From positions 15,879 through 79,878 of the forward strand of contig JBMFKI010000004.1 in the NCBI GenBank assembly GCA_049972525.1: 64,000 bases of DNA. Direction: 5' to 3'. The position numbers and the translations under genes were made by a program. The notes under the pieces were generated by a model. That model saw only the letters and a program-made list of their open reading frames with translations. It did not search any database and was not told where the DNA came from. Below, piece after piece: positions 22,456-62,259 of the stretch (positions are counted from its first letter, which is position 1; each line of letters opens with the position of its first letter). Source of the stretch: Candidatus Bathyarchaeia archaeon (GTDB lineage: Archaea > Thermoproteota > Bathyarchaeia > Bathyarchaeales > Bathycorpusculaceae).

Positions 22456-22459
22456 AAAA

Positions 22460-27423: not shown

Positions 27424-27859
27424 CTTGTTTTCCTCCCATTTTCAAAGGGTTTGGACCAAGCTTCTTAATCTGTTCAACCATGTCTCGGACTACGGCTGCA
27501 AATTTGTCTCCCTCGCCGGCGGAAACCCATTCCAGCCGCACACGTTCGGGTTCTATCCCAAAATCTTTAAGCACTTTCTTTAATAGCGTTACTCTTCGCA
27601 AAGCCTTAAAATTACCACTAAGATAGTGGCAGTCGGATGGAAGGTGGCAGCCAGCCACCAAAACACCGTCAGCTCCATTTTTCAAGGCTTCTATTATGAA
27701 GGCTGGGTCTATTCTTCCACTACACATAACGCGGATAACACGGATGTTCGGTGGGTATTGGATTCGACTTACACCAGCCAAGTCTGCACCAGCATAGGCA
27801 CACCAGTTGCATAGAAAACCAACAATTTTTGGTTCAAAATCCGTTTTGGCTTCGCTCAT
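27416..27859 (-). CDS. mvhD: MvhD (hydrogenase delta / [2Fe-2S] adaptor subunit)
   Basis: IVGFLCNWCAYAGADLAG...VMCSGRIDP...AGCHLPSDCHY is the canonical MvhD/FlpD pattern. 147 aa. It overlaps both neighbouring genes. Confidence 0.85.
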   Translation of the reverse strand: MSEAKTDFEPKIVGFLCNWCAYAGADLAGVSRIQYPPNIRVIRVMCSGRIDPAFIIEALKNGADGVLVAGCHLPSDCHYLSGNFKALRRVTLLKKVLKDFGIEPERVRLEWVSAGEGDKFAAVVRDMVEQIKKLGPNPLKMGGKQGE

Positions 27860-33467: not shown

Positions 33468-34058
33468 TTATTCTCGAAGTCTTCCTTCAAGTTTGCTTAC
33501 CCATTTATTGTATTCACGGGCGCCCAACAACTTTTTAAGTTCCTGCTCCAGAGTTAGCGAGTTGTTAGGCTTAATTTCCACAATCCATCCTTCGCCGTAT
33601 GGGTCTTCATTAACTAAGTTTGGCTCATTTTTCAGTTTCTCGTTCACTTTAACTATTTTGCCGCTTACTGGTGCATATAGGTCAAACATGAACATCCATG
33701 TTTCTGCAACGCCGAATGGCTCCATATGACTTATTTCCTTTCCAACAGGTTCAGTCATTATGTTCGCTATGCCTTTCAAATGTCTCTGCGCGTAATCTGA
33801 AACGCCCACTCTAATGTTTCCCTCTGGCGTCACCTGTGCCCATGTGTGCTTTGGCGTGTACAGAAGAAGCTCAGGCGTTAAAAGCAATTCCTTTCGTTTT
33901 TCCGCTGGTATCCCCTCCGCACGCATCAGGTCTTCGAGGCGTAGGCGGATTGCTTCTGAAACGAATTCTGATATGCTTCTGTAGCGCCCCGTTTTGATTG
34001 CTTCTTCAATCTGTTTTATTAGTTCTTGTCTTATGCTTACGGTTTTCCATTCAGACAT
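33468..34058 (-). CDS. Ribbon-helix-helix domain fused to a GcvH-like (lipoyl-carrier fold) domain that lacks the lipoyl lysine
   Basis: N-terminus VSIRQELIKQIEEAIKTGRYRSISEFVSEAIRLRLEDL is CopG/RHH-like. The C-terminus YTPKHTWAQV...VGVSDYAQ...GVAETWMFMFDLYAPVSGKIVKVN...EDPYGEGWIVEIK is GcvH-like. M124 (33693-33695) sits where GcvH has the lipoyl Lys (ESVK). The ATG at 34058 lies 9 nt after GGAGGA. The track ORF starts at TTG 34064. Confidence 0.65.
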   Translation of the reverse strand: MSEWKTVSIRQELIKQIEEAIKTGRYRSISEFVSEAIRLRLEDLMRAEGIPAEKRKELLLTPELLLYTPKHTWAQVTPEGNIRVGVSDYAQRHLKGIANIMTEPVGKEISHMEPFGVAETWMFMFDLYAPVSGKIVKVNEKLKNEPNLVNEDPYGEGWIVEIKPNNSLTLEQELKKLLGAREYNKWVSKLEGRLRE

Positions 34059-34064
34059 TTCCAA

Positions 34065-45806: not shown

Positions 45807-48037
<2,231 letters not shown>

Positions 48038-48045
<8 letters not shown>

Positions 48046-49270
48046 TTTTCTTTGCCTCCGAAGTTTCAATTTTTAAAGCAGGCATCAAAGCTATCTTCTT
48101 GAAAAACTCCTCAAATTTCTTGTTGAATTCTCCAACACAACGAGGTGAAACCGTGAAAAGCTCAAAACGTTCAAGAAGCCCCCTCTTTTTCAGAAAATCT
48201 TTAAGCACATCCACATTTCTCTCGGCTGTTTCCCTTCCCTCTTGAAGTTTGCAGTCCTCAGCCGAGCAGACAACAGCCATTACGCCGTCAAAGCCGCTGT
48301 GCAAAGCTTCAACAACATGAACTGGGTCAAGAGACTTAAAACATGGAATCTCCATGGCTACAGCTCTCTTCTTGAAAAGTAGGCATTCTGGGTCGTCTAG
48401 GCACGAAAAGTCTGACCATTGACAGCAGAAAACGAGGATCGATGGAAAGTTGGCTTCCGCCTTCAATTTTCTGGCAGCTTCGCCATAAAGCCTTATCAAC
48501 CTGCTAATGTTTTCAAACTCGAAACCCTCAACCTGAATTGCCAAATGTGGACAAACGAGTGCGCAGGCGCCGCATCCCATGCACGCTTCTTGAATTATTT
48601 TTGGCGTTGCAAACTCTTCAGCTTCTATCGCGCCGTATGGACATATGAAAACGCATTTGTCGCAGCCGACGCATTTTTCAGTGTCGTAAACAGCTTTATG
48701 CGAGTACTTAATAACCTTCAAAGCGTCTTTACTGAAGCCCAACTGCTCAAGCACGGCCTTGCCAAGCATAAGCCTTCTAGTGTTGATTTTTGTTCCCCTT
48801 TTAAAGCGGCAGAACTCGTCTTCACATTGTATGGAAACAACATATTTTACGCCAGAGTTCAAAGCCTTAAAAATAAATTCTGTCGGCACCCGCCCTGAGC
48901 ACGGTATACGTAGGGGAATATAATCCCTTATTTTCAAGCCTTGGCTTTCAAGTATTTCTTCAATTTTGCATGTTGCTGGCGAGTTGCCGCGGCACATGAG
49001 AACAAGTGTGTCGCTTCCTTTTTTCTCGCGTATGCGGTTAAGATATCCTATCAGATTATCATAACTGTAATAGACAATTTCTATGGCAAGCGAGGGACAA
49101 GCACTGTAGCAGATTCCGCAAACTTGGCACTTCTGAATGTCAATTTCGAAGTTGCCGCTTTCCAAATCCCGCCTTATAGCCTCATAGGGGCAGACGGAAT
49201 AACAAACTGCACATTTACTGCAATAATCCTGATTTATGCGTACAGCGGCTGCACACGCCTCCTCACTCAT
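48038..49270 (-). CDS. Duplicated [2x4Fe-4S ferredoxin + MvhD-like domain] protein
   Basis: Repeat 1: CSKCAVCYSVCP, CQVCGICYSACP, then LVLMCRG...IPCSGRVP...IQCEDEFC. Repeat 2: CVGCDKCVFICP, CMGCGACALVCP, then LVFCCQW...IPCFKSLD...VVCSAEDC. Its stop overlaps the nfnA-like GTG start by 8 nt. The alternative GTG start is at 49285. Confidence 0.7.
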
Positions 49271-49374
49271 GAAACATTTCTCCACCGTTCTAGTGAAACT
49301 TGCCTTATGATTAATACATAGGCTTAGAAGATTTTTGAGGCATCTCCAATGATATAATAGTTTTGGAGCACAAC

Positions 49375-50310
49375 CTATGGTTTATAATAGTAAGGTCTAC
49401 GAATAAAGCCATAAGCTTCAACAGCCGCGGTTATGCCTTGACCAACAGCTGTTCCAACTTGCTTCACCGGGTGATTCGTAACGTCTCCAGCAGCGTAAAC
49501 CCCAGGAATGTTTGTTCTTTGACGAATGTCAACTATGATGTAGCCTTCTTCATTTACAGCTACGCCTGCTTCTTTGGCTATTTGGCTGTTCGGGTCTTCG
49601 CCTGCTTGGATGAAGACGCCGTCAACGGGCAGTTCTTTGATTTCGTCAGTTCTATTATTGAAAATTACAGCTTTATTTACGAGTTTTTCGCCCTTAATCT
49701 CCTTAACCTCAGTGTTCCACAAAATCTCCACATTATCCTTTCCTTTCAAAGCGTTCACAAGCGCTTCCTCAGCTCTAAATGCCTCCCGCCTATGAGAAAC
49801 TTTAACTTCTCCTGCAAGCTCAGCTATATACAAAGCTGTCACAACAGCAGCGTTTCCACCGCCAACAACAAGCACACGCTTACCCTTAAACAATGGCCCA
49901 TCACAAATGCCACAGTAACTTACCCCCCTTCCAAGAAATTCTCTCTCACCAGGAACGCCTAATTCGCGATAACGCGAACCAGAAGCAATTATTAAGGCCT
50001 TCGCCTCATAAGTGGTTCTATTAGTTTTCACCAACTTCTTTTCACCTTTCAAGTCTAAGCTTGAGACCCCCTCAAACTCGCGTATGGTGACACCAGCTTT
50101 CCTGCAGTGCGCCGCCATCCTCTGGGCTAACTCTACGCCAATTATACTTTCGAAGCCTGGATAATTCTCTATTTTGGGGGCGTCAGCAGCTGTGCCTCCA
50201 ACAATTTTTTCCTCCAAAATCAACGTTTTAAGTCCGCTTCTCGCGCCGTAGATTCCAGCTGCTAATCCCGCGGCGCCGCCGCCCACGATTATCAGTTCCC
50301 AATTTTCCAT
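49375..50310 (-). CDS. trxB: Thioredoxin-disulfide reductase-like flavoprotein
   Basis: IVGGGAAGLAAGIY, redox CxxC in YCGICDGPLF, second Rossmann VVGGGNAA, and GVYAAGD. The ATG at 50310 is 9 nt from GGAGG. Confidence 0.75.
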   Translation of the reverse strand: MENWELIIVGGGAAGLAAGIYGARSGLKTLILEEKIVGGTAADAPKIENYPGFESIIGVELAQRMAAHCRKAGVTIREFEGVSSLDLKGEKKLVKTNRTTYEAKALIIASGSRYRELGVPGEREFLGRGVSYCGICDGPLFKGKRVLVVGGGNAAVVTALYIAELAGEVKVSHRREAFRAEEALVNALKGKDNVEILWNTEVKEIKGEKLVNKAVIFNNRTDEIKELPVDGVFIQAGEDPNSQIAKEAGVAVNEEGYIIVDIRQRTNIPGVYAAGDVTNHPVKQVGTAVGQGITAAVEAYGFIRRPYYYKP

Positions 50311-50406
50311 GAGGTACATCCTCCTTTTCTAATACTTTTGTTGTTTGCGCTTATCAAGCGTTCGCATTGTTTTAACTGCCTTCACCAATTTCAAAATTGA
50401 GTTCGC

Positions 50407-50625
50407 TTATTTCTGTTTCGTAGCATCGTTGGCATAGCCATCAAAATTTTCATACTCATCTTCATTAATTCCACTACCGCAAACTGAGCAGTAAAACTTC
50501 TTTCCGCCTTCCTCTTCGGAAACCTTACGCTTCTTCTTTTTCTGTTTCCCAAGCAAATCGCTAAATAATTTAGCCGCCACATTAACGTAAAACCATTTTG
50601 AACACAAATCAATAAAGGTTGACAC
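50407..50625 (-). CDS. Possible small Lys-rich protein with a single CxxC (very uncertain)
   Basis: 72-codon ORF with a GTG start overlapping the hdrD-like stop by 1 nt (TAGTG). No recognisable family, and it could be non-coding. Confidence 0.2.
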   Translation of the reverse strand: MSTFIDLCSKWFYVNVAAKLFSDLLGKQKKKKRKVSEEEGGKKFYCSVCGSGINEDEYENFDGYANDATKQK

Positions 50626-51746
50626 TATATTGCTTGAGCAACAAGTTCGGCGATATCCATAACTTGGATTTTACCTTCATTACCAGTTGTTTTCACAGCA
50701 TCCTCAATTGTCAAGAGACAGAATGGACAAGCTACGGCTAATATTTCAGCGCCAGAGGCCACGGCGTCTTTGACGCGTATTTCCGCAAGCCTTGGTCCTG
50801 GAATGTCAACCCACATCCTTCCGCCTCCTCCCTCACAGCATAGGCTTCTGGCTCTTGAGCGGTCAAACTCTAAAAGTGTCACGCCCGGAATGCTTTCGAT
50901 AACTTTGCGCGGTTCTTCGTATATGCCATTTTGCTTGCCTAGGAAGCATGGGTCATGGTAAATCACTTTCTTTTCCACTTCCTTTGTGAATGTCAGTTTC
51001 TTCTCATCTACCAGTTTGGCTAGCAGCTGTGAGTGGTGTAGCGGTTCAAAGTTTGATTGGTTGTAGCGGTTTTTGAAAGCATGAAAGCCGTGTGGACAGT
51101 TTGTAACGACTTGTTTAACTGCGTATTTATTGAAAATCTTCATGTTCTCCTCGACTAAGAATTCGAATAAGCCCTTTTCGCCCATGCCGTAAACTTCGCT
51201 TCCACAACAGTTTTCCTCTTCGCCTAAAACTCCAAAGTTTACTCCCGCTTTTTGAAGGCTTAAGACGAGACTTTTCGCAACGTTTTGGACACGTGGATCA
51301 TAAGCCGACGTGCAACCTACATAGTATAGAATTTCTGCACCTTGAGAGATGTGTTTGACGTTTAAGCCTTGACTCCATTCGGCACGTTTGCTGCGAATTC
51401 TAGCCCACGGATTCCCATTTTTGAATATGCTTTCCAAAGCGTCGCGAATTGTTGGCGCTATCTGACCCTCTTCAACAGCCATGCTTCTAATGTCAATCAA
51501 AAATTCGTAGGGGTTCAAATCCTTGGGACAGCGAACACCACAAGTTGAGCACGTTGTGCAGCTCCACAACTCGTTTTGAGAGTGAATGGTTAGCCTGCCA
51601 AGAGCAGAAACTTCACGCATATAACGTCTAATGTTTAGGTTAGCCTTCTTTGAAACTGGGCAGCTGCCCGTGCACATTCCACATTGTATGCATTCAAGCA
51701 GCTTATGTTTTTGAATGAGCTCTTGAACGTTCATTCTAAACGTCAC
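50625..51746 (-). CDS. hdrD: HdrD-like iron-sulfur/CCG-domain oxidoreductase (soluble)
   Basis: CIQCGMCTGSCP, CTTCSTCGVRCP, then two CCG motifs (NCCGSE, LCCEGGGG) and ACPFC. No long hydrophobic segment. The alternative ATG start is at 51734. Confidence 0.8.
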   Translation of the reverse strand: MTFRMNVQELIQKHKLLECIQCGMCTGSCPVSKKANLNIRRYMREVSALGRLTIHSQNELWSCTTCSTCGVRCPKDLNPYEFLIDIRSMAVEEGQIAPTIRDALESIFKNGNPWARIRSKRAEWSQGLNVKHISQGAEILYYVGCTSAYDPRVQNVAKSLVLSLQKAGVNFGVLGEEENCCGSEVYGMGEKGLFEFLVEENMKIFNKYAVKQVVTNCPHGFHAFKNRYNQSNFEPLHHSQLLAKLVDEKKLTFTKEVEKKVIYHDPCFLGKQNGIYEEPRKVIESIPGVTLLEFDRSRARSLCCEGGGGRMWVDIPGPRLAEIRVKDAVASGAEILAVACPFCLLTIEDAVKTTGNEGKIQVMDIAELVAQAI

Positions 51747-51818
51747 TTTGACTGATTTTTGGGAGTAAGATTTTTAATAAGTGTTTTCCTTCTATGAGTC
51801 AAAACGCACCATTAAATA

Positions 51819-54200
51819 ATGGAGATCATCCTCATGGAGAAGAAGAATCAGCGCATTGGAATTTTTGTTTGCGAGTGCGGCGGGAACATAGGCGACGTGG
51901 TGGACGTTAAGGCTGTCGTTGAAGCTGTTAAAAACTGGAAAAGTGTCGTCGTAGCTAAACAGCACAAGTATTTGTGTTCAAAACCAGCTCAAGAAATGAT
52001 AATAGAAGCCATAAAAAAGAACAATCTGGACCGCGTTATCGTTGCAAGTTGCACACCACGCATGCACTTGCCCACTTTCCAAAGCGTCTTAGAAAGGGCT
52101 GGATTAAACCCTTACATGCTCGAGTTCGTAAATATCCGCGAACAAAGCTCATGGGTTCACGGCCCACACGCATCAGCAGAAGCCACAAGAAAAGCTATAA
52201 GCCTTATCCGAGGCGGATATGAACGAAGTTTCGAGCTTGAACCACTAGAACCAGTAAGCGAGAAAGGCTCAAGGGAAATCCTCATAGTCGGCGGGGGAAT
52301 AGCTGGTATAACAGCTGCACTTGAGCTTGGATATTTGGGTTATAAGGTTCACCTTGTTGAGCGAAAGCCAAGCATAGGCGGTAACATGGCGAAACTTACA
52401 AAGGTTTTCCCCACTTTAGACTGCGCCCAATGTATCTTAACGCCGAGAATGGCTGAAGTTGGAAGAAACCAAAATGTCAACTTGCTCACATACGCTGAAG
52501 TGCAGGAAGTAAGCGGGCGACCTGGCAATTATAAGGTTAAGGTTTTCATGAAGCCTAGAGGTGTTGACGTTGAAAAATGCAGAAGCTGCGGCGTATGCGC
52601 AAAAGTTTGCCCAGTTACCGTTCCAGACGAATTTAATGAAGGCTTAGCTCAAAGAAAAGCAGCTTACATAGAGTTTCCGCAGGCTGTACCATCAGCCTAC
52701 ACTATAGATTTCAACGCCTGCAACAAATGCCGAAAATGCGAACAGCTTTGCCCAGCAAAAGCCATAAACATAGACGACCAAGGCAAGGTCGTTGAACTAA
52801 ACGTTGGCGCAATAATCCTAGCTGCGGGATATCAGCTTTATGATGCGCGGAAACTGGAAATTTATGGTTATGGCACGTATAAAGATGTTATAACAATGAT
52901 GGAACTTGAAAGACTCACATCAGCAACTGGACCAACAGGAGGCTTCGTTAAAAAGGCTGATGGAAGTGATGTGCGGAAAATGGCGATTGTCCTCTGCGCT
53001 GGTTCACGTGACAAGAATTACATTCCATATTGCAGCCGCATATGCTGCATGTACTCACTTAAACAGGCTTTTGTACTTAAGAAAATGCTCGGAATAGACG
53101 TTACAATCTACTACATCGACATTAGAGCAACTGGAAAAGGTTATGAGGACCTGTATTGGCGAGACCAAGAGGCAGGCGTCCTCTTCATCAAGGGTAAAGT
53201 AGCTGAAATCTACAGGAACAACGCCAATGGTAAGCTTGTGGTTTTGGCTGAAGACACGTTGACAGGCGAGGTGCGTGAAGACGAGTACGACATGGTTGCC
53301 TTGGCTACGCCAATGGTTCCATCAGCTGGGCTTAAAGAACTAGCCGAAAAGATGAAAGTGGCTGTTGGCGAAGACGGTTTCATAACTGAAAAGCATCCAA
53401 AACTTGACCCTGTAGATTCACTTGTTGCTGGAATATTCGCTTGCGGTTGCACACTAAGCCCGAAAGATGTGAGGGACACTGTTTCGGATGGTTTAGGCGC
53501 AGCAGCCAAGGCTGCACTCTTCCTAAAAAGTGAATATGTAACAACAAGTCCGGAAAAAGCCTATGTCATTACGGATTTGTGTAACGGATGCCAAGCATGC
53601 ATACCTGTATGTCCAGTTAACGCAATAAGGATGGTTGAAGGCAAAGCGAAGATAGACCCATTCCAATGCACTGGATGTGGCGCGTGCGTACCAACATGTC
53701 CACAAGAGGCAATAGACTTCAAGAACGCAACGACAAAGCAGATTCTCGCCACTTTAAGGGGGGTTTTAGCTGAAAAGCAGGCTGGCGAAGTGCGAATAAT
53801 AGCCTTCGTCGACAAGAACGTTGGGTATACTGGAATGGACTTCTTGGGGTTGGATAGAACTAACTATCCGGAAAACATTCGCATCGTGGCTGTTCCCTCA
53901 ACAGCAATTTTAGGACTGAAACATGTTCTATACGCTTTTGCTTACGGTGCTGACGGCATCCTCGTAATTGAGGGGCAAGAGGAAATTGACGAAAAATTCA
54001 CGAAAAAACGAATGATTGACATGGGAAGGGAACTGGCCAAATACGGCATAGAATCAATGCGGGTGCGCTATAGCTATGTTCCGCTGCCAGTTTACAAGAA
54101 GGCAGCAGAACTTTTTACAATGTTCACTGATAGAATAAAGAAGTTTGGACCAGTCGCTGAGGAAAAAAGAAATAACATAAAGCAGCAACTAAAAATTTAA
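51819..54200 (+). CDS. hdrA: HdrA-like flavoprotein with C-terminal cysteine-less MvhD-like domain (793 aa)
   Basis: N-domain IGIFVCECGGNIG...ASCTPR...EQSSW, VGGGIAGITAALEL, FPTLDCAQCIL, inserted ferredoxin (CRSCGVCAKVCP, CNKCRKCEQLCP), C-terminal ferredoxin (CNGCQACIPVCP, CTGCGACVPTCP). The tail then aligns to MvhD but has no cysteines. Confidence 0.8.
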   Translation: MEIILMEKKNQRIGIFVCECGGNIGDVVDVKAVVEAVKNWKSVVVAKQHKYLCSKPAQEMIIEAIKKNNLDRVIVASCTPRMHLPTFQSVLERAGLNPYMLEFVNIREQSSWVHGPHASAEATRKAISLIRGGYERSFELEPLEPVSEKGSREILIVGGGIAGITAALELGYLGYKVHLVERKPSIGGNMAKLTKVFPTLDCAQCILTPRMAEVGRNQNVNLLTYAEVQEVSGRPGNYKVKVFMKPRGVDVEKCRSCGVCAKVCPVTVPDEFNEGLAQRKAAYIEFPQAVPSAYTIDFNACNKCRKCEQLCPAKAINIDDQGKVVELNVGAIILAAGYQLYDARKLEIYGYGTYKDVITMMELERLTSATGPTGGFVKKADGSDVRKMAIVLCAGSRDKNYIPYCSRICCMYSLKQAFVLKKMLGIDVTIYYIDIRATGKGYEDLYWRDQEAGVLFIKGKVAEIYRNNANGKLVVLAEDTLTGEVREDEYDMVALATPMVPSAGLKELAEKMKVAVGEDGFITEKHPKLDPVDSLVAGIFACGCTLSPKDVRDTVSDGLGAAAKAALFLKSEYVTTSPEKAYVITDLCNGCQACIPVCPVNAIRMVEGKAKIDPFQCTGCGACVPTCPQEAIDFKNATTKQILATLRGVLAEKQAGEVRIIAFVDKNVGYTGMDFLGLDRTNYPENIRIVAVPSTAILGLKHVLYAFAYGADGILVIEGQEEIDEKFTKKRMIDMGRELAKYGIESMRVRYSYVPLPVYKKAAELFTMFTDRIKKFGPVAEEKRNNIKQQLKI

Positions 54201-54325
54201 ATTCATTTTTCTTCCACACTTCATGCATTTCTCTACGTGTTGATGTGGAAAAACTAGAAAAGAAAGCAAAAATTATATGAAAATGGTTTGTTTATCCTCT
54301 CTTCAATTTGGAGAGGAGAAAAGCT

Positions 54326-55114
54326 TTGGACATAATTGTTTGTGTTAAACACGTCCCAGAAACCGCTGAGGCGGAGCTAAAAATTGATGTAAACGGAAAA
54401 ACCATAGAAAAGTCGGGATTGGTCTTTGACATCAACGAGTGGGACGACTACGCATTAGAGGAGGCAGTGCGCATAAAAGAGAAACTGGGCGGAACGGTCA
54501 CAGCGATAACAGTTGGCGCTGAAGATTCTGACAGTACACTGCGCAAGTGCTTAGCCCGCGGCGCAGACAGAGCAATACGCTTAACAGACCCAAAATTTGA
54601 GGGCTCAGATGGCTACGCAACAGCAAAACTACTCTGCAGCGTAATCAAGAACATGCATTACGATTTGATTTTGACCGGTTTTCAGGCTGGAGATGACGGT
54701 TACTCAATGGTTGGTCCAATACTGGCTGAGTTGCTTGGAATACCGCACGCAACGCTTGTTAAAAAAATTGAGTTGAGCGCTGACACTGCAAGGGTTAATC
54801 GTGAACTTGAAGGTGGATTGGAAGAAGTTGTTGAGGTTAAGCTTCCAGCACTTTTCGCTGTTCAAACAGGCATAAATGAGCCACGCTACGTTTCGATAAT
54901 GGGCATCCGCAAGGCAATGCAGAAAGAGATAAAAGTCATGAATTTAGCGGAAACAGGCTTAAGCGAAGCGGATGTTGGTGAAGCGGGTTCATGGCTCAAA
55001 ATAGAGAAACTTTACGTTCCTCCAGTTGAAAAACAAGCAGAATTCCTCAAAGGAAGCCCAGACGAAGTTGCAGCGAAAATTGTTGAAATCCTCAAGTCAA
55101 GGGGGCTGATATAA
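54326..55114 (+). CDS. etfB: Electron transfer flavoprotein beta subunit
   Basis: LDIIVCVKHVPE... is the typical EtfB N-terminus, followed by DLILTGFQAGDDG. The TTG at 54326 lies 7 nt after GGAGAGGAG. The track ORF starts at TTG 54308. Confidence 0.85.
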   Translation: MDIIVCVKHVPETAEAELKIDVNGKTIEKSGLVFDINEWDDYALEEAVRIKEKLGGTVTAITVGAEDSDSTLRKCLARGADRAIRLTDPKFEGSDGYATAKLLCSVIKNMHYDLILTGFQAGDDGYSMVGPILAELLGIPHATLVKKIELSADTARVNRELEGGLEEVVEVKLPALFAVQTGINEPRYVSIMGIRKAMQKEIKVMNLAETGLSEADVGEAGSWLKIEKLYVPPVEKQAEFLKGSPDEVAAKIVEILKSRGLI

Positions 55115-55115
55115 A

Positions 55116-56105
55116 ATGGCGGAAATTTTCGTTTTAACAGAACATAGGCAAGGGCAGATACGGGACATAACGTATGAGATGCTGACGAAGGGCAAGGAGA
55201 CAGCTGAAAAGTTAAACGCTGAGCTAACTGCGGTTATGCTTGGCAAGGATGTTAAGGAAAAGGCGAAGGAACTTTCTGAATACGCTGAAAAAGTTTTGGT
55301 TGTTGAAAATGCTAAACTTGAAAACTTCAATTCTGAAGTTTACCAAAAGGTGCTCTCAAACCTAATCAGAGAACAAAAGCCAACATTAACAATGGTTGGA
55401 CACACTTCTTATGGCGTGGAACTTGCCCCAAGACTTGCAGCATCGCTTAATATTCCGTTAGCAACAGACTGCATAGATCTAACATTTGAAGGTAAAAACC
55501 TCACGGTTACTAGGCAGATGTACGGAGGAAAAGTTAACGTTAAGGCTACGCTTAAAGAGGCAGAAGGCTACATGGTCACTGTGCGCCAAGCAGCCTTCAC
55601 AGCCAAAAAACCCCAGCCACCACTAAACGGCGAAATAATAGAAAAACCAGCACTATTAACAGAGGAAATAACGGCAAAACGCTTTGTAGAATATGTTCTG
55701 CCGCCACCTGGAGGCGTAGACATAACAGCAGCAGAGAAGCTTGTCGGCATTGGAAGAGGCATAAAAGACCAGGCGAACATGCCTATAATTGAAGAGTTTG
55801 CAAAGGCTTTAGGCGCTGTGCTTGCGTGCTCAAGACCAGTTGTGGATAAGGGTTGGCTTCCAAGCGACCGTCAAGTGGGCAGTTCAGGAAAAACCGTGAA
55901 ACCGAAACTTTACATAGCGGTTGGCATAAGCGGTGCCTTCCAGCATGTTCTAGGAATGAAGAACTCTGATTTGATTATAGCAATAAACAAAGATCCAAAC
56001 GCGCCGATATTTAACTTCTCAGACTACGGCATAGTGGATGACTTATTCAAGGTTATTCCAGCGCTAAAGAATAAGATAAACGAGTTAAAAGAACAAAAAG
56101 CATAG
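55116..56105 (+). CDS. etfA: Electron transfer flavoprotein alpha subunit
   Basis: C-terminal FAD motif PKLYIAVGISGAFQHVLGM...IIAINKDPNAPIF. The start is 1 nt after the etfB stop. Confidence 0.85.
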   Translation: MAEIFVLTEHRQGQIRDITYEMLTKGKETAEKLNAELTAVMLGKDVKEKAKELSEYAEKVLVVENAKLENFNSEVYQKVLSNLIREQKPTLTMVGHTSYGVELAPRLAASLNIPLATDCIDLTFEGKNLTVTRQMYGGKVNVKATLKEAEGYMVTVRQAAFTAKKPQPPLNGEIIEKPALLTEEITAKRFVEYVLPPPGGVDITAAEKLVGIGRGIKDQANMPIIEEFAKALGAVLACSRPVVDKGWLPSDRQVGSSGKTVKPKLYIAVGISGAFQHVLGMKNSDLIIAINKDPNAPIFNFSDYGIVDDLFKVIPALKNKINELKEQKA

Positions 56106-56133: not shown

Positions 56134-57288
56134 ATGGAGTTTAAAATGACAGAGGAACAGCTTGAAATCAAAAAGGCAGCCAAAGAGTTCGCGGAAAAGG
56201 AGTTCACACCAGAACTAGCACTAGAATACGACCAAAAAGAAGAGTTCCCAATGACACTATATAAAAAGGCTGCACAGCTGGGTTTTACGGGAATGCGCAT
56301 ACCACAAGAATATGGCGGACAAGGCTACGGCGTGCTTGAAGATTGCATAGTCGTAGAAGAATTTTGCAGAGTGGACCCTGGACTAGGCGTGGCGGTATCC
56401 CTTGGAAACCTAATGGTTCCAGATGTTCTCCTAAAACATGGCACGGAACAGCAAAAAGAGAAGTATATTCCGCCACTGGCGAAAGGCGAAAAAGTAGCTG
56501 CAGCAGCCTTCACAGAGCCGGAACATGGAAGCGACATAACACGGATGAATACAACCGCAATAAAAAGTGGAAACGAGTGGATAATTAATGGCAACAAACA
56601 GTTCATAACAAATGCGCCAATAGCAGACACGTTCATAATACTGTGTCAAACAGACCCGAACGCCCAGCCATCACACAGAGGACAAAGCCTGTTTCTAGTA
56701 GAAAAGGGCATGTCAGGACTGGATGCAACGAAGTTGCATAGGAAGATGGGGATAAAACCATGCGTTACTGGCTCACTTGCACTCAGCGACTTAAGAGTGC
56801 CGGAAGCAAACCTTGTCGGCGAATTGAATAAGGGATTCTATTATGCTTTGGAGCTTTTTGACGGAACAAGAATAACAGTTGCAGCCCAAGCCGTAGGCAT
56901 GGCACAAGGAGCATTTGAACGTGCATTGAACTATGCGAGAACACGAAAACAGTTCGGTCAACCAATAATAAACTTTCAAGCAGTGTCATTCAAGTTAGCT
57001 GAGATGACGATGAAGATTGAGGCTGCCCGCTTGATGACGTATAAGGCTGCTTGGCTTTATGACAACGAAAAGCCTAACCCCGCGGCAACATCAATGGCTA
57101 AAGCCTACGCGAGTCGTGTGGCAATGGAAGTTACAGATGATGCTATACAAATCCTTGGTGGATATGGATATTTGGCTGATTACCATGTTGAACGTTTCCA
57201 CCGCTGCGCAAAGATAACGGAAATCTATGAGGGCACAACGGAAGTTCAGAAACTAACAATAGTCAATTTCCTACAGAAACAGGCGTAA
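56134..57288 (+). CDS. Acyl-CoA dehydrogenase, copy 1
   Basis: 384 aa: AAFTEPEHGSD, FITNA and the catalytic-Glu region IYEGTTEVQ. GGAGG lies 9 nt upstream. Confidence 0.9.
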   Translation: MEFKMTEEQLEIKKAAKEFAEKEFTPELALEYDQKEEFPMTLYKKAAQLGFTGMRIPQEYGGQGYGVLEDCIVVEEFCRVDPGLGVAVSLGNLMVPDVLLKHGTEQQKEKYIPPLAKGEKVAAAAFTEPEHGSDITRMNTTAIKSGNEWIINGNKQFITNAPIADTFIILCQTDPNAQPSHRGQSLFLVEKGMSGLDATKLHRKMGIKPCVTGSLALSDLRVPEANLVGELNKGFYYALELFDGTRITVAAQAVGMAQGAFERALNYARTRKQFGQPIINFQAVSFKLAEMTMKIEAARLMTYKAAWLYDNEKPNPAATSMAKAYASRVAMEVTDDAIQILGGYGYLADYHVERFHRCAKITEIYEGTTEVQKLTIVNFLQKQA

Positions 57289-57392
57289 CAATCCACACTT
57301 TCTTCTTTCTATTTTAAACTTACTGACGTGTTATTTCAAAACTTTTATACTCTTTCAACCACATTTACATTCTCTAAAAAGGAGGAGATATT

Positions 57393-58583
57393 TTGGCGGT
57401 TGGAAAAATCCAAAAAGCGGTAGTTATAGGTTCTGGAGCTATGGGACATGGAATCGCGCAGCTTCTAGCAATGACTGGACACAATGTTACAATGGTTGAC
57501 GTAAGCGACGAGTTTCTCCAAAAGGGTATGGAGAAAATCAAATGGAGCCTTGAAAAGTTTGTTGAGAAGAAAAGGATTAGACGTGAAGACGCTGACGCTG
57601 CATTAGCTAGGATAAGCACAACAACAAGTTACGAGCAGGCGGCGAAAGACATTGACTTAGCAATAGAGGCAGTCCCGGAAAACATAGAGCTGAAAAAGAA
57701 GGTTTTCGCAACAGTTGACGCAGTGGCGCCTCCGCAAGCGATTTTAGCGTCAAACACTTCAACGCTGAGCATAACGGAGATGGGAAAAGCCACAAAACGC
57801 TCAGACAAAGTTGCTGGAATGCACTTCTTCAATCCACCGCAACTAATGGCTCTTGTGGAAGTGATAAAAGGTGAAGGAACAAGCCAAGAAACGCTAAACA
57901 CACTTGTAGAGCTTGCAAAAAAGCTTGGAAAAACGCCAGTAGTAGTGCGGAAAGACGTTAGGGGCTTTATAGTCAACAGAATTTTAGGCGCAGTTTTCAA
58001 CGAGGCATTCTGGGCTTACTATAGAGGAGAAACGACAAAGGAAGGAATAGATGCTTCAGTAAAATATACGGGTGGTTTTCCAATGGGATGGTTTGAACTT
58101 GCAGACTTTGTTGGTCTGGACATAGCTTATGAAGTTGGTAAAATACTCTATGATGCCTACGGTGAGAGAATGAAGCCATGCGCAGAAGTGATTGAACCAC
58201 TAGTAAAGGAACGCAAGTTCGGACAAAAAACAGGCGTAGGCTTCTACGACTGGACAAAGGGGAGACCACGCATACCATTCAACCTACTCGAGGAATACGA
58301 TGTTGAAAGATCGTGGGCTGTAGCCGCAAACGAGGCGGCATGGCTCATACATGATGATGCCGCAAACCCAGAAGACATAGATACTGGAATGAAGCTCGGC
58401 ACTTATTGGCCTTCAGGTCCCTGCGAATACGCTGACAAGGTTGGTTTAGATGTTATACTGAGCAAATTGAAGGAGCTGTATACCAAATATAACATAGAAA
58501 TGTATAAGCCCTGTCCGCTGCTTGAAGATTACGTTAGCAAGGGCTGGACTGGGAAAAAGGCCGGTAGGGGGTTCTACCAATGA
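57393..58583 (+). CDS. 3-Hydroxyacyl-CoA dehydrogenase
   Basis: Rossmann VIGSGAMGHGIAQ, NTSTLSITE, HFFNPP, and an extended C-terminal dimerisation domain. TTG start after GGAGGAG. Confidence 0.85.
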   Translation: MAVGKIQKAVVIGSGAMGHGIAQLLAMTGHNVTMVDVSDEFLQKGMEKIKWSLEKFVEKKRIRREDADAALARISTTTSYEQAAKDIDLAIEAVPENIELKKKVFATVDAVAPPQAILASNTSTLSITEMGKATKRSDKVAGMHFFNPPQLMALVEVIKGEGTSQETLNTLVELAKKLGKTPVVVRKDVRGFIVNRILGAVFNEAFWAYYRGETTKEGIDASVKYTGGFPMGWFELADFVGLDIAYEVGKILYDAYGERMKPCAEVIEPLVKERKFGQKTGVGFYDWTKGRPRIPFNLLEEYDVERSWAVAANEAAWLIHDDAANPEDIDTGMKLGTYWPSGPCEYADKVGLDVILSKLKELYTKYNIEMYKPCPLLEDYVSKGWTGKKAGRGFYQ

Positions 58584-59734
58584 AATTCGAATTGACGGAA
58601 GAGCAAATTGGAATTGTAAACGCCGTTAGAGAATTTTGCCAAAAAGAGTTTAAGCCAGAACTAGCCTTGGAGCTTGACAAGAAAGAAGAGTTTCCAATTG
58701 AAATCTACAAGAAAGCGGCACAACTGGGTTTCACAAGCATGTTCTTCCCAGAGGAGTACGGTGGGCAAGGCTATGGGCTTCTAGAAGTATGCCTAGTTAT
58801 CGAAGAAATGTGCCGTGCAGACTCCTCATTAGGAGTGGCCGTTTCTAGTGGAAATTTCGGAAGCGATTTGATACTGGCTCATGGAACAAAGGAACAGAAG
58901 GAGAAGTATCTGCCCCCAATATGCAAAGGAGATTTCATATCAGCAGCAGCCTTCACAGAGCCGAACGTGAGTGGAAGCGACATAACACGCATGGAAACGA
59001 CAGCAACAAAATATGGAAACGAATGGTGGATAAATGGGACAAAAACTTTCATAACAAACGCGCCAATGGCAGACTTCATAGTTGTCCTAACACAAACAGA
59101 CACAAAAGTGAGGCCAACATATAGAGGTGAAACACTGTTCGTAGTTGACAAGGGCACGTCTGGACTGGAAACAACGAAACTTCACAACAAAATGGGGATC
59201 AGGTGCTCGGTAACAGGCGAAGTTAAATTTGACAACGTCAAGGTGACAGACGCAGACATCGTTGGGGAACTAAACAGAGGATTCTACTACTCAATGGAGT
59301 TCTTCGACAAAACAAGAGTAGGCGTAGCAGCCCAAGCCGTAGGCATGGCACAAGGAGCATGGGAAATCGCCTTCAAATATGCAAAGCAAAGAGAAGCTTT
59401 CGGACAGCCAATACTGCAACATGAACTTATAGGTTGTGGATTAGCAGAAGCCATGACGAAAATTGAGGCTGCAAGATGGCTAACTTATAGGGCTGCTTGG
59501 CTCATAGATGCTGGAAAGATGGATCCGATGGCAACGGCGATGGCGAAGCAATACGCAGGCAAGGTTGCAATGGAAGTCACCGATTTCGCAATTCAAACGC
59601 TTGGCGGATATGGATATTTGGGCGACTACCGTGTTGAGCGCTACCATAGAGACGCAAAGATAACTGAAATTTACGAGGGAACAAGCGAAATCCAGAAGCT
59701 AACAGTGCTGAAGTATCTGCTCAGGAAATTCTAA
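58580..59734 (+). CDS. Acyl-CoA dehydrogenase, copy 2
   Basis: Paralog of 56134..57288, with AAFTEPNVSGSD, FITNA and IYEGTSEIQ. It overlaps the upstream gene by 4 nt. Confidence 0.9.
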   Translation: MKFELTEEQIGIVNAVREFCQKEFKPELALELDKKEEFPIEIYKKAAQLGFTSMFFPEEYGGQGYGLLEVCLVIEEMCRADSSLGVAVSSGNFGSDLILAHGTKEQKEKYLPPICKGDFISAAAFTEPNVSGSDITRMETTATKYGNEWWINGTKTFITNAPMADFIVVLTQTDTKVRPTYRGETLFVVDKGTSGLETTKLHNKMGIRCSVTGEVKFDNVKVTDADIVGELNRGFYYSMEFFDKTRVGVAAQAVGMAQGAWEIAFKYAKQREAFGQPILQHELIGCGLAEAMTKIEAARWLTYRAAWLIDAGKMDPMATAMAKQYAGKVAMEVTDFAIQTLGGYGYLGDYRVERYHRDAKITEIYEGTSEIQKLTVLKYLLRKF

Positions 59735-59786
59735 GACATGAAAAGTGATAATAATTGCACACAACAAAATAGAGGATGGTGAAAAG

Positions 59787-60575
59787 ATGAGTAAAGCATA
59801 TGAAACTGTAAAAGTGGAGAGGGAACAAAGCGTATTGTGGATAACACTGAACAGGGCGCATAGGCTTAACGCCTTCAACGATGTCCTACTTGAAGAGCTA
59901 GGCGACGCTTTAGATACTGCTGAAAAAGATCCGTCAGTTAGGTGCGTCATAATAACAGGCGAAGGCGACAGAGCCTTCAGCGCGGGCGCAGACGTAACAA
60001 TGTTTCCTAAAGCAACACCAGCCAAAGCAGAAGAATTCTCAAGATTGGGACAGAAGACCTTCGGAAAAATAGAGGAGATGTCAAAACCAGTAATTGCGGC
60101 GATAAACGGCTTCGCCTTAGGCGGAGGGCTAGAGCTAGCCCTAGCATGTGACTTTAGAATAGCAGCGGAACATGCGGAACTTGGAAGCCCAGAAATAGGT
60201 TTAGGTTTAATTCCAGGATGGGGCGGAACACAGAGGCTCGTCAGAATTGTAGGCTTAGCAAAGGCGAAGGAGATGGTTATGCTTGGCGAGCGAATCAAAG
60301 CGGAAGATGCCCTAAAAATTGGTTTAGTTCACAAGGTTGTGCATTTTGACAAGCTTAAAGATGAAACCCGATCCTTGGCGAACAAGATTGCTGAAGGGCC
60401 ACCGATAGCCATGAAATATGCGAAGCATGCCATAAACTTTGGAACACAAGTTCCATTGGAAGTTGGATTGCGCCTAGAGTCTGGGCTTATGGGCTTGGCG
60501 TTTTCAACCGAAGACTTGAAAGAAGGCGTGGAAGCGTTCATGTCGCGACGCAAAGCTGAATTCAAAGGAAAGTAA
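59787..60575 (+). CDS. Enoyl-CoA hydratase (crotonase family)
   Basis: ITLNRAHRLNAF, FSAGADV, AAINGFALGGGLELALACDFRIA. The ATG at 59787 is preferred over the track start at 59745. Confidence 0.85.
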   Translation: MSKAYETVKVEREQSVLWITLNRAHRLNAFNDVLLEELGDALDTAEKDPSVRCVIITGEGDRAFSAGADVTMFPKATPAKAEEFSRLGQKTFGKIEEMSKPVIAAINGFALGGGLELALACDFRIAAEHAELGSPEIGLGLIPGWGGTQRLVRIVGLAKAKEMVMLGERIKAEDALKIGLVHKVVHFDKLKDETRSLANKIAEGPPIAMKYAKHAINFGTQVPLEVGLRLESGLMGLAFSTEDLKEGVEAFMSRRKAEFKGK

Positions 60576-60653
60576 GCGTGAACATAAGCATCAATAACTT
60601 TTTCTCCATCTTACCCTTTTTTGATTTAATGTTTAAAATCAGATGTGGTTAAA

Positions 60654-61826
60654 ATGAGAAAAGTAGCAGTAATAGGAGTTGGAAACTCCAAGTTCGGCGT
60701 TAGAAACGACGTAAACATCGCAGAAATAGCTTACGAGGCTGTTAAGCCATCGCTTGAAGATGCAGGAGTAACCGCCAGAGACATAGAATTTGTAGCTCTT
60801 GGCTCTGTAGGTGCTGGCGCCTGGTATGAGGAACTTCTCCCAGCAGTCGTTACAGCAGAATACTGCGGTTTAACAAAGGCTGGTTTAGTTCGCTGTGAAG
60901 CTGCATGTGCCAGCAGTAGCGCAGCCTTCTTCACTGCTTACTCGGCTATTGCAAGTGGCCAAGTGGAAATAGCAATGGCTTTAGGCGTTGAAAAAATGCG
61001 TGAAATTGATACACCCACTGCTATGGAGTGGATTGGAAGAGCGGGCTATTACCTTTGGGAGTTTCACAATTTTGGAATGACGTTCCCGGCCTACTATGCT
61101 ATGCACGCCACGGCGCACATGGCAAAGTTCGGAACCACTGAGGAAGACTTGGCTTTAGTGGCTGTTAAAAATCATAAGTATGGCTCTATGAACCCCATAG
61201 CGCATTTCCAAAACAGGATAACAGTGGATGATGTGCTTTCATCAATGGTTATAGCTTCGCCTCTTAAGCTGTTTGATTGCTGTCCCATAACGGATGGTGC
61301 AGCATCGATAATTCTCGCTTCAGAAGAAAAAGCTAGGCAATTGGGCGTTGACACTCCGGTGTGGGTTGCTGGGATAGGCTACTCTTCTGGAACAGCAAAC
61401 CTAAGCAGAAGACTTGATTATGTTGGTTTAGAGTCAAGCGTTTACGCTTCGCAGATGGCTTATAAAATGGCTGGTGTAACGCCAAACCAAATAGACTTCG
61501 CAGAGGTTCACGACTGCTTTACAATAGCAGAGATAATGGCTTACGAAGACATCGGATTCTGCAAAAAAGGGGAAGGGGCAAAGCTCATCCGTGAGGGACA
61601 AACAGAAATTGGCGGAAAAATCCCAGTAAACGTGGATGGTGGTTTAAAGGCGAAGGGTCATCCTATAGGTACAACTGGTTGTTCAATGATATACGAATTA
61701 ACAAAGCAGCTTAGGGAAGAAGCCGTAGAAAAAAGCAGGCAGGTTCCACTGAAAAACTACATTGGATTGGCGCATAACGTTGGTGGAACTGGGCATTACT
61801 GTTACGTGACTATCTTAAGGAGGTGA
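60654..61826 (+). CDS. Thiolase (archaeal acetyl-CoA C-acyltransferase type)
   Basis: VAVIGVGNSKFG, active-site region CEAACASSSAAF, DCFT, GHPIGTTG. The ATG at 60654 is preferred over GTG 60645. Confidence 0.85.
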   Translation: MRKVAVIGVGNSKFGVRNDVNIAEIAYEAVKPSLEDAGVTARDIEFVALGSVGAGAWYEELLPAVVTAEYCGLTKAGLVRCEAACASSSAAFFTAYSAIASGQVEIAMALGVEKMREIDTPTAMEWIGRAGYYLWEFHNFGMTFPAYYAMHATAHMAKFGTTEEDLALVAVKNHKYGSMNPIAHFQNRITVDDVLSSMVIASPLKLFDCCPITDGAASIILASEEKARQLGVDTPVWVAGIGYSSGTANLSRRLDYVGLESSVYASQMAYKMAGVTPNQIDFAEVHDCFTIAEIMAYEDIGFCKKGEGAKLIREGQTEIGGKIPVNVDGGLKAKGHPIGTTGCSMIYELTKQLREEAVEKSRQVPLKNYIGLAHNVGGTGHYCYVTILRR

Positions 61827-61830
61827 ATAC

Positions 61831-62259
61831 ATGTCTGCTATGCCTTCTATAAAGTCGAGAGAGATTAAAATTGTGCAGGAGATACCGATAAGTAAAACTT
61901 TGAGGTTTTGGGAAGGCTTAAAAAATGGAAAAGTTTACGCGACGAAATGCGCTAAATGTGGAAAAATCTATTTTCCGCCAGTAGCAGACTGCCCAGAATG
62001 CCTAACATCGAACATGGAATGGACTGAGCTAAGCAACGAAGCAGAGATTGAAACATTCACGCATGTTGTTGCAAGACCAACATCATTCCTGCAGAGTAAA
62101 CCATACACGGTTGCAATTGGAAGGCTTAAAGAAGGCGTGAGAGTGCTTGCATGGCTGACGGGATTTAAACTTTCACAAGTTAAAGTCGGAATGAAAGTTA
62201 AGCTTACAGCCAAAACAACGCCAGAGGGAAACCTAACATACGAGTTCGTTCCACCATAA
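61831..62259 (+). CDS. DUF35 zinc-ribbon/OB-fold protein (thiolase partner)
   Basis: CAKCGKIYFPPVADCPEC rubredoxin-like ribbon followed by an OB-fold segment. It lies directly downstream of the thiolase, as is typical in archaea. Confidence 0.8.
   Translation: MSAMPSIKSREIKIVQEIPISKTLRFWEGLKNGKVYATKCAKCGKIYFPPVADCPECLTSNMEWTELSNEAEIETFTHVVARPTSFLQSKPYTVAIGRLKEGVRVLAWLTGFKLSQVKVGMKVKLTAKTTPEGNLTYEFVPP

Follow-up and report, generated by a model that had tools for sequence, protein, structure and literature searches.

A soluble EMO/EtfD-type iron-sulfur protein paired with HdrA in Bathyarchaeia: a candidate partner for electron-transferring flavoprotein

Which protein takes the electrons of acyl-CoA dehydrogenation from an electron-transferring flavoprotein (Etf) when the iron-sulfur protein encoded nearby has no membrane domain? 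The question is raised by a locus within a 64,000-nucleotide stretch of DNA, called the window here, from a Bathyarchaeia member (its HdrD-like protein is 77-90% identical to its 120 best homologs, and all named sources among these are Bathyarchaeia, Bathyarchaeota or Bathycorpusculaceae; the nearest genome locus, L001, is from a hot-spring metagenome-assembled genome (MAG) and shows 95% identity). An hdrD-like gene on the minus strand and a third copy of hdrA on the plus strand (hdrA3) diverge from a short spacer, and downstream of hdrA3 come etfB, etfA and then acd-hbd-acd-crt-thiolase-DUF35. A first-pass annotation had reported these genes with the domains and the order found here, and had suggested that the HdrD-like and HdrA-like proteins jointly provide a soluble acceptor for Etf. 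That general idea fared well. Family membership, the pairing of hdrA with hdrD in 70/70 loci and the hdrA, etf and acd context of relatives favour con- or bifurcation between Etf and ferredoxin. The reading adopted here, held tentatively and at close to even confidence, is that HdrA3 and the HdrD-like non-cubane (NCB) iron-sulfur protein form a soluble Etf/ferredoxin bifurcating or confurcating module in which HdrA replaces a haem-b membrane anchor.

Two known systems frame the question. In EMO/EtfD, reduced canonical Etf gives single electrons to non-cubane clusters, from which they pass by two cubanes and haem b to menaquinone. In HdrABC, the two electrons of a pair part at the HdrA flavin, one branch leading to ferredoxin and the other into the HdrC-HdrB cluster chain. 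All data below are computational and come chiefly from MAGs; synteny was read by tblastn, and transmembrane (TM) prediction was a hydropathy count.

The HdrD-like protein and its cluster ligands

The longest open reading frame (ORF) of the hdrD-like gene lies at 50625-51746 on the minus strand (373 amino acids (aa); GTG start at 51746) and encodes two [4Fe-4S] and two CCG domains as matched by Pfam; the likely gene, 50625..51734, starts with the ATG at 51734. Its best sequence match in the PDB is EtfD of M. smegmatis (9ojn_A, 197.6 bits, E=3e-57), residues 58-371 aligning with EtfD 407-743. Among other PDB relatives the score is 67 bits for HdrC and 20 bits for HdrB, and an HdrB profile gives 20-22 bits. 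The fold points the same way. An AlphaFold2 model built on a broader alignment (pLDDT 74.8; a model from 13 near-identical sequences, with a poor pLDDT of 62, was set aside) has EtfD 9OJN as its top match with a query TM-score of 0.80 (E=1e-22), and next comes HdrB at TM 0.52, over the NCB half only.

The cluster sites were traced with the ligand lists for EtfD (PMC13083937) and for the EMO of S. aciditrophicus, SaEMO (preprint 10.64898/2026.08.18.745454). An HdrC-like domain supplies the eight cysteines for two cubane [4Fe-4S] clusters, C19, C22, C25, C29, C63, C66, C69 and C73, which correspond to EtfD C301, C304, C307, C311, C412, C415, C418 and C422. The proximal non-cubane ligands C267, C303, C304, C340 and C343 correspond to EtfD C637, C672, C673, C709 and C712, and the capping histidine of EMO/EtfD is present as H219 (H583 in EtfD, H534 in SaEMO). 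At the distal site C145, C180, C181 and C217-P-H-G220 are the SaEMO variant (H534/G535), in which Gly stands in place of Cys81 of HdrB (preprint 10.64898/2026.08.18.745454). None of the 18 cluster cysteines varies among 80 orthologs, nor does H219; at position 220, 74 of these have Gly, 4 Ser and 2 Ala, and none has Cys. The HdrB/HdrD signature, two complete CCG motifs with 10 cysteines (CX31-39CCX35-36CXXC), is not present; there are 9 cysteines and the histidine. The window's two genuine HdrBs read C-N-G-C and C-T-G-C at the same place.

This bears on a disulfide as the electron acceptor. The first-pass annotation had considered an Etf:disulfide route, which is unlikely with a proximal cluster that is His-capped as in EMO and unlike that of the window HdrBs. 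A fuller alternative is that HdrA3 and the HdrD-like protein truly act as a soluble reductase of disulfides, comparable to HdrA2B2C2 or FlxABCD-HdrABC, which would reduce some low-molecular-weight or protein disulfide along with ferredoxin, the Etf and beta-oxidation genes being mere neighbours. We regard it as unlikely, though to be taken seriously. The best NCBIfam matches, which speak for it, are HdrA2 for HdrA3 and the C-terminal part of TfrB (NF004898, model positions 125-488 only) for the HdrD-like protein, but the scores fall far under the cut-offs (854 vs 1100 bits and 181 vs 385 bits). The first CCG motif is incomplete, C-P-H-G where the window HdrBs have a 10-cysteine C-x-G-C set, and its histidine is at the position that in SaEMO blocks the coenzyme M (CoM) site and fills the HdrB substrate site (preprint 10.64898/2026.08.18.745454). 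A tree position near TfrB-like and soluble forms again suits the disulfide reductase, while relatives co-occur with etf and acd far above chance, and the conserved core showed no gene for thioredoxin, a DsrC-like protein or a thiol cofactor.

Solubility, which had been claimed for the HdrD-like protein, agrees with prediction, and the family is that of the membrane EMO/EtfD/DUF224 proteins. No TM helix was predicted in its 369-373 aa, which begin at the di-cubane domain without an N-terminal extension, and the sole hydrophobic 19-mer (329-347) bears the ligands C340 and C343. The NarI-like haem-b domain of EMO/EtfD, with its five TM helices, is missing. Long relatives have N-terminal extensions of 250-350 aa with 3-6 predicted TM helices. 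Relatives were drawn from 1.8 billion cluster representatives, and the 150 closest representatives of 50% clusters (34-66% identity over matched stretches) were examined. About 100 of these are of the EMO/EtfD type, with 640-780 aa and at least 3 predicted N-terminal TM helices; ~32 are short and soluble, and ~16, of ~520 aa, have an SdhB-type N-terminus and are TfrB-like. Of the 150, 19 have the exact CCCC-HG signature, and 18 of those 19 are membrane forms.

The capping histidine is shared far more widely (149/150, SdhB-fused TfrB-like forms included). As an EMO-specific marker it was dropped; the contrast with genuine HdrB, which has Gly there, holds. The window's own TfrB-like protein has it too, in S-P-H-C as against C-P-H-G, and is 40% identical to the HdrD-like protein over the whole NCB module. 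Though TfrB is the best NCBIfam match, no N-terminal [2Fe-2S] domain of the SdhB type is present in the HdrD-like protein, no TfrA is encoded next to it, and TfrB-like relatives were never found beside HdrA. Judged by its sequence, the HdrD-like protein is a soluble member of an EMO/TfrB-like NCB clade and not an HdrB-type catalytic subunit.

HdrA3, its pairing with hdrD and the etf linkage

The partner gene, hdrA3, has its longest ORF at 51819-54200 on the plus strand (793 aa) and its conserved start at ATG 51834, so that the gene is read as 51834..54200. It encodes a full HdrA with a FlpD/MvhD-like tail. Against methanogen HdrA (8rvu_a) the protein scores 643 bits over residues 10-652 with all cysteine motifs aligned; there is a thioredoxin-reductase-like domain for flavin adenine dinucleotide (FAD) and there are N-terminal, inserted and C-terminal ferredoxin-type motifs (six [4Fe-4S]). 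The NCBIfam model that it matches best, HdrA2 (NF040770), is of the M. acetivorans type and MvhD-fused. Identity to HdrA copy 2 of the window is 36%.

The tail is degenerate in one respect. Its FlpD domain scores 77 bits only, and it has no cysteine, either in the window or in 65/69 orthologs: FLCNWC has become FVDKNV, MCSG has become VPST, and GCH..DCH has become EGQ..DEK. The cysteines are retained in stand-alone MvhD, in HdrA copy 2 and in both FlpD domains of a polyferredoxin nearby. The usual [2Fe-2S] relay is therefore not bound by the HdrA3 tail, and the fused MvhD domain was rejected as a relay to Mvh hydrogenase. The earlier suggestion that electrons could feed into the Mvh hydrogenases is not supported, and the conserved neighbours described below are TrxR, an MvhD-polyferredoxin and NfnSL, not hydrogenase. 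[The HdrA paralogs of the window show complementary decay: HdrA3 has the N-terminal-domain cysteines (CECG...C...C) and has lost those of the tail (aa ~655-793 of 51819-54200), and HdrA copy 2 (37889-40312) has kept the MvhD cysteines and lost those of the N-terminal domain (SDCG, VAESIPK).]

One genome per GTDB species was scanned, which gave 186 relatives, and synteny was read from the best 80 of the 186 loci, all labelled Bathyarchaeia or Bathyarchaeota bar one contig that is probably mis-binned. The divergent hdrA3/hdrD pair is present in 70/70 of the loci with enough upstream DNA, at a median gap of 92 bp and with identities across paired loci of 78-94% for HdrA3 and 77-95% for the HdrD-like protein. 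The arrangement is therefore not a matter of chance. Downstream of hdrD, in 53 evaluable loci, a thioredoxin-reductase-type flavoprotein gene (trxR) follows in 46/53, nfnL/nfnB in 45/53 and a polyferredoxin gene with MvhD domains (fd-mvhD) in 39/53. The mis-binned contig (L080, DATKLC010000084.1) is labelled Krumholzibacteriaceae bacterium, is probably archaeal, and has acd-etfA-etfB-hdrA3/hdrD with 72-80% protein identity; only 24 nt separate its hdrA3 and etfB.

The linkage of etfBA is of another order. The first-pass annotation had asked for conservation of hdrD-hdrA-etfBA as a whole. The hdrA/hdrD part stands in every evaluable locus, but etfBA is within 10 kb of the pair in only 21 of the 39 loci with both flanks available and is directly adjacent in about ten. 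Of the 21, 19 have it on the hdrA side (gaps of 21-5811 bp, at most 1.1 kb in ~10) and 2 beyond nfnL, where it is found in four loci overall (L004-L007). Since etfBA-acd occurs on either side of the core, the association survives rearrangement. In the loci without etf, hdrA3 is flanked by housekeeping genes for leucyl-tRNA synthetase (LeuRS), PolB and primase. The hdrA3/hdrD pair is thus the invariant unit, and the etf and beta-oxidation genes are its frequent, mobile neighbour. By our own estimate this linkage is still far above expectation for a set present in one to few copies in a genome of ~2 Mb.

Start codons and promoter-like elements modify two distances that had been given for the locus. 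When the hdrD/hdrA3 spacer of the window is aligned with those of 79 related loci, the conserved starts fall at ATG 51734 for the hdrD-like gene (MNVQEL) and ATG 51834 for hdrA3 (MEKKNQ), ~99 bp apart; the divergent region of 72 bp described earlier is the distance between the longest ORFs. That the region is shared does hold up, to the extent that a single B-recognition element (BRE)/TATA-like element, GATTTTTAATAAGTGTTTTCC, is conserved in this alignment at 51769..51789. Its conservation makes it a candidate common or bidirectional archaeal promoter. Between hdrA3 and etfB, for which 107-125 nt had been given, the gap measures 125 nt if counted up to the conserved start codon, TTG 54326, and there is a T-run after the hdrA stop. 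The gap also contains a second BRE/TATA-like element on the plus strand at 54264-54279 (AAGCAAAARTTATATG / AAGCAAAAATTATATG), ~50 nt upstream of the etfB start, which is conserved in the window, L001, L002 and L015 and differs from the spacer element. Both elements were judged by conservation alone, the host being archaeal. Probably hdrA3 and the hdrD-like gene share one promoter region and etfBA has its own.

The genes that follow hdrA3 are all on the plus strand. etfB starts at 54308 or 54326 and ends at 55114 (Pfam), etfA, for the large FAD-containing subunit, is at 55116-56105 (Pfam ETF and ETF_alpha), and the block 56134..62259, with Pfam and NCBIfam matches throughout, comprises acd (56134-57288), hbd (57393-58583), a second acd (58580-59734), crt (59745-60575), thiolase (60645-61826) and DUF35 (61831-62259). 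These six genes make up a full set for short-chain beta-oxidation or reverse beta-oxidation. Five loci of one Bathyarchaeial subgroup (L014, L015, L019, L020, L031) have genes of the 2-hydroxyacyl-CoA dehydratase family by the hdrA3/hdrD core: two HGD-D genes (2-hydroxyacyl-CoA dehydratase or benzoyl-CoA reductase B/C type) with a crotonase-like gene, an acd paralog and a luciferase-like, possibly F420-dependent oxidoreductase gene.

The Etf and the soluble relatives in other lineages

Whether a separate acceptor is needed depends on the type of Etf. In bifurcating EtfB the 'zipper' hexapeptide is D-G-[DE]-T-[AG]-Q, and in group-1 canonical EtfB it is D-D-D-S-N-Q (PMC8958531); Gly123 (A. fermentans numbering) is invariant in bifurcating EtfB (PMC12630350). 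The EtfB encoded here has D-D-G-Y-S-M (D-Q-A-Y-A-S in the ETF of Methylophilus W3A1), which differs from the bifurcating, group 2 motif at 5/6 positions, the 100%-conserved Thr included, and matches the group-1 motif at 2/6. The Gly123 position is Asp, as it is in 28/29 orthologs. In the PDB its best match is the canonical, AMP-binding ETF beta of W3A1 (196 bits), and bifurcating EtfBs score ~141 bits. With a non-bifurcating motif and Asp at Gly123, the Etf is therefore predicted to be a single-FAD carrier that needs a separate redox partner, and the earlier claim that it requires a dedicated acceptor is borne out in so far as published motifs class its EtfB as non-bifurcating. A canonical one-flavin carrier of this kind, predicted to bind AMP, would be unable to bifurcate alone.

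MAG papers commonly take Acd-EtfAB as bifurcating (e.g. PMC9723716), and the EtfB sequence at this locus argues against that assumption. The corresponding alternative, that Acd-EtfAB is itself a bifurcating enzyme of the Bcd/Etf type and the hdr genes are unrelated neighbours, appears very improbable. The best PDB matches of EtfA are bifurcating (LctC, CarE), and Acd and Etf score best on NCBIfam models for clostridial acryloyl-CoA reductase; against these stand the five of six failed hexapeptide positions, the Asp and the closeness of EtfB to W3A1 ETF. EtfBs of the DDG[YF] type are also encoded beside a membrane EMO-like gene (L122) and beside soluble relatives (L085, L093, L101, L111, L136). 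[In operons of the order HdrA x3, NCB, EtfA, EtfB from other lineages (L131, L133, L134, L137, L152), EtfB has D-G-[AS]-T-x-Q, which is near the bifurcating motif, and in some lineages HdrA and a soluble NCB protein may be combined with an Etf that has two FADs.]

Outside Bathyarchaeia the closest soluble relatives are those of Anaerolineales (49-53% identity), which have an HdrA-like gene on both sides. A giant GltD/NfnB-HdrA fusion and MvhD are encoded upstream, and CoA-transferases and a distant acd nearby. Scanning metagenomes with an alignment built from diverse soluble forms yielded 80 loci. Of the short soluble forms from outside Bathyarchaeia, 27 had 4 kb of flank or more: 19 of these 27 have an HdrA-like gene within 3 kb, 10 have etf within 6 kb and 6 have both. 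The membrane forms have etf in 6/9 and HdrA in 0/9, and the SdhB-fused forms have TfrA in 2/2 and neither HdrA nor etf. Soluble forms thus go with HdrA and often with etf, and membrane forms with etf but without HdrA. One Etf-linked iron-sulfur module thus seems to have two alternative exits, the membrane domain and HdrA, and this complementary distribution offers an evolutionary hypothesis for the exchange of Hdr and EMO modules.

Several single loci show the whole set together. The operon of L118 encodes DctP, DctM, an AMP-forming CoA ligase, Acd, NCB, EtfB, EtfA and a 905-aa HdrA/GltD fusion; that of L101 encodes Hbd, Acd, NCB (CCCC-HG, 54% identity), EtfB, EtfA, Acd, HdrA (52%) and an NfnB-like protein; L131, L133, L137 and L152 encode HdrA x3, NCB, EtfA and EtfB. 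GltD/NfnB-like modules recur by HdrA in relatives (L081, L099, L101, L109, L118, L143).

The variety of neighbours raises a further alternative, that the HdrA3/NCB pair is a general high-potential hub for several flavoenzymes (TfrA-type fumarate reductase, Acd/Etf and others). In two metagenome loci (L087, L088) tfrA and tfrB come directly after the hdrD-like gene, the window has a TfrAB-like pair of its own at 17172-20460, and the neighbours of the core do vary (etf/acd, HGD-D dehydratases, an ADP-forming acyl-CoA synthetase). We nevertheless consider a general hub improbable, as etf/acd is by far the commonest catabolic neighbour of soluble forms, and the SdhB-fused relatives have their own NCB domain and are never beside HdrA.

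Electron flow, known systems and other genes of the window

If HdrA3 and the NCB protein do form a soluble complex that serves Etf, electrons could move as follows. The non-cubane clusters would trade single electrons with canonical EtfAB and acyl-CoA dehydrogenase (the high-potential branch, at about -10 mV), and the ferredoxin domains of HdrA3 would trade electrons with ferredoxin (the low-potential branch). The HdrA3 flavin would join or split the pair toward a mid-potential two-electron carrier. The chain would thus run from Etf by the non-cubane clusters and the cubanes to the HdrA flavin, which is also linked to ferredoxin. Run oxidatively, acyl-CoA would be oxidised by confurcation with reduced ferredoxin, the electrons going to the mid-potential carrier; run reductively, a mid-potential donor would reduce enoyl-CoA and make reduced ferredoxin. 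The module would be a split functional counterpart of clostridial Bcd-EtfAB, with HdrA bifurcating in place of the second Etf flavin. The mid-potential partner may be NAD(P)H, by way of the MvhD-polyferredoxin/NfnSL operon, or F420H2, or H2. Sequence does not decide the direction, and the scheme would apply to both. Reductive, fermentative use fits the gene for the ADP-forming acyl-CoA synthetase, the HGD-D neighbours of some loci and the thermodynamics, and oxidative use fits the L118 operon with its transporter and ligase.

Several observations weigh against the proposed Etf/ferredoxin module, and some of them in favour of the disulfide reductase. No etfBA was found within 7.5-10 kb in 18/39 evaluable loci and no etf within 8 kb of the Anaerolineales relatives, and hdrA3 and etfB each have a promoter-like element of their own. 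The most constant gene downstream of hdrD is trxR (46/53), which could indicate thiol chemistry. In a distance tree (no bootstrap) the closer company of the Bathyarchaeial clade is that of soluble and SdhB-fused, TfrB-like forms, membrane EMOs joining deeper. TfrB-like proteins also carry the capping histidine, and their methanogen prototype is reported to use thiols, so this residue is no proof of a non-catalytic site. The cysteine-free MvhD tail leaves the HdrA3 flavin without an evident entry or exit route. On general thermodynamic grounds the oxidative direction would be feasible only at very low H2 or NADH.

Comparison with known systems places the proposed module between several of them. 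With EMO/EtfD, its best sequence and fold match, the HdrD-like protein shares the HdrC-like di-cubane and NCB domains with all ligands, including the capping histidine and the Gly for HdrB Cys81, and the association with canonical EtfAB and acyl-CoA dehydrogenases. Unlike EMO/EtfD, it lacks the haem-b domain, so the partner cannot be a quinone, and it is strictly paired with hdrA. From HdrABC-MvhAGD come the likeness of HdrA3 to methanogen HdrA (~50% identity), an NCB protein that is the counterpart of a fused HdrC-HdrB, and the expectation that the flavin divides electrons between ferredoxin and a high-potential branch with non-cubane clusters at its end. The differences are a His-capped NCB site with one cysteine fewer, which makes catalysis of the type acting on the heterodisulfide of CoM and coenzyme B (CoB), CoM-S-S-CoB, unlikely, an MvhD domain without cysteines, and a conserved core without hydrogenase genes. 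Bcd-EtfAB would have the same couples (enoyl-CoA/acyl-CoA, ferredoxin and a mid-potential hydride carrier) and has the same gene set (thl, hbd, crt, acd, etfBA), but the Etf here has no bifurcating-FAD motif, and HdrA would bifurcate by way of an EMO-like iron-sulfur wire.

FlxABCD-HdrABC and the HdrL-type systems of anaerobic bacteria are likewise soluble and built on HdrA, with adaptors resembling MvhD and flavoproteins that bind NAD(P)H, and bacterial NCB relatives are found beside HdrA/GltD fusions (L081, L118). Those systems have been proposed to reduce DsrC or some other disulfide by a standard HdrBC, whereas an EMO-type module is present here, and for NAD(P)H there is a bona fide NfnSL, which has an MvhD-polyferredoxin to itself and a putative tie to HdrA3. 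In the class II benzoyl-CoA reductase BamBCDEFGHI, compared by its description in the literature, BamD is an HdrD-like NCB protein, BamE is HdrA-like and BamF MvhD-like, and there are a NAD-binding module and, nearby in the cluster, genes for an Etf (BamOP); the conserved core of Bathyarchaeia has no tungsten subunits of the aldehyde-oxidoreductase type (BamB/C).

HdrD-like iron-sulfur oxidoreductases were already known as Etf partners (EMO/EtfD, FadF, and HdrF3-etfBA in Desulfobacterium), and in Desulfobacterium a soluble HdrD is encoded beside HdrA (hdrA4-hdrD2) (PMC2702500; PMC5109826). No description of a soluble EMO-type/HdrA/Etf complex, or of its universality in Bathyarchaeia, was found in the literature, subscription journals being mostly outside the search. 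Quite possibly, though at somewhat short of an even chance, HdrA with a membrane-less EMO-type protein is a previously unrecognised class of flavin-based bifurcating system, whose high-potential substrate is canonical EtfAB and, through it, the acyl-CoA/enoyl-CoA couples. Both Bcd-EtfAB and quinone-dependent EMO would then have a modular alternative, which all Bathyarchaeia would share and which would recur in anaerobic bacteria, Anaerolineales among them. In anoxic sediments Bathyarchaeia belong to the most abundant archaea, and their genomes are rich in Hdr genes without a known substrate. If the class is real, an orphan Hdr gains a concrete function, which would explain some orphan Hdr of non-methanogens that have neither CoM/CoB nor quinones; the high-potential electrons of acyl-CoA dehydrogenation would be handled without quinones or a membrane enzyme, and there would be a modular route to ferredoxin-coupled fermentation of fatty acids and amino acids or to syntrophic oxidation.

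The island continues on the minus strand beyond the hdrD-like gene. The trxR gene is at 49375..50319, with CGIC and HRRxxFR motifs and a TIGR01292 score of 345.3 bits vs a cut-off of 343.45. It is followed by an operon of overlapping genes at 45807..49285 (Pfam): fd-mvhD, for the polyferredoxin with two MvhD/FlpD domains (48038-49285), nfnS/A (47200-48069) and nfnL/B (45807-47219). Against T. maritima NfnB (4ylf_B), NfnL/NfnB reaches 613.6 bits, and NfnS/NfnA reaches 293.9 bits against P. furiosus NfnI-S (5jca_S); both pass their NCBIfam cut-offs, and both subunits are close to characterised enzymes of the NfnSL type (ferredoxin:NADP+ oxidoreductase, NADH-dependent). As an obligatory subunit of the HdrA3 module NfnSL was downgraded, being a bona fide, stand-alone type of Nfn, though it is translationally coupled to the MvhD-polyferredoxin. 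Any tie of that operon to HdrA3 is inferred. The stop of the polyferredoxin gene overlaps the nfnS start, and nfnS overlaps nfnL; a dedicated MvhD adaptor is unusual for a bona fide NfnSL. About nine related loci lack fd-mvhD and have a divergent nfnS (~52-55% identity) directly after trxR.

Next on the minus strand, at 42833..45643, is a gene for a 936-aa fusion of the ADP-forming acyl-CoA synthetase (ACD; alpha and ATP-grasp beta parts) with a GNAT acetyltransferase domain at the C-terminus (Pfam, NCBIfam), which recurs near the island, by nfnB or by hdrA3, in many related loci. Two conventional mvh-hdrABC clusters lie farther off on the hdrD-like side of the window. The first hdr/mvh operon is led by a gene for a GcvH-like lipoyl carrier (33468-34064, minus, 198 aa) and continues with gltD-like/ferredoxin (571 aa), MvhD-like (248 aa), a giant HdrA (1010 aa), mvhD, hdrC, hdrB, mvhG and mvhA. 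The giant HdrA (27856-30888, minus) has two Pyr_redox/FAD modules in a tandem HdrA core; upstream of it are the 248-aa MvhD-like protein and the GltD/NfnB-like, NAD(P)-binding 571-aa protein (31646-33361, minus), which has a C-terminal ferredoxin domain. Together the three resemble a split, NAD(P)H-linked Hdr of the 'HdrL' type joined to MvhAG. A lipoate-protein ligase gene (15901-16578, minus) is 17 kb from the gcvH-like gene, which recalls LbpA/sHdr of sulfur oxidisers, and the lipoyl protein could be a dithiol/disulfide substrate of the first-operon Hdr.

The TfrAB-like pair opens a plus-strand group at 17172-22966. Its first gene encodes a soluble flavoprotein of the SdhA/TfrA-like kind (901 bits on PRK06069) and its second a TfrB-like subunit of 521 aa with SdhB N-terminus and NCB module (S-P-H-C; 314.7 bits vs the TfrB cut-off of 385); genes for an aldehyde:ferredoxin oxidoreductase and a ferredoxin come next.

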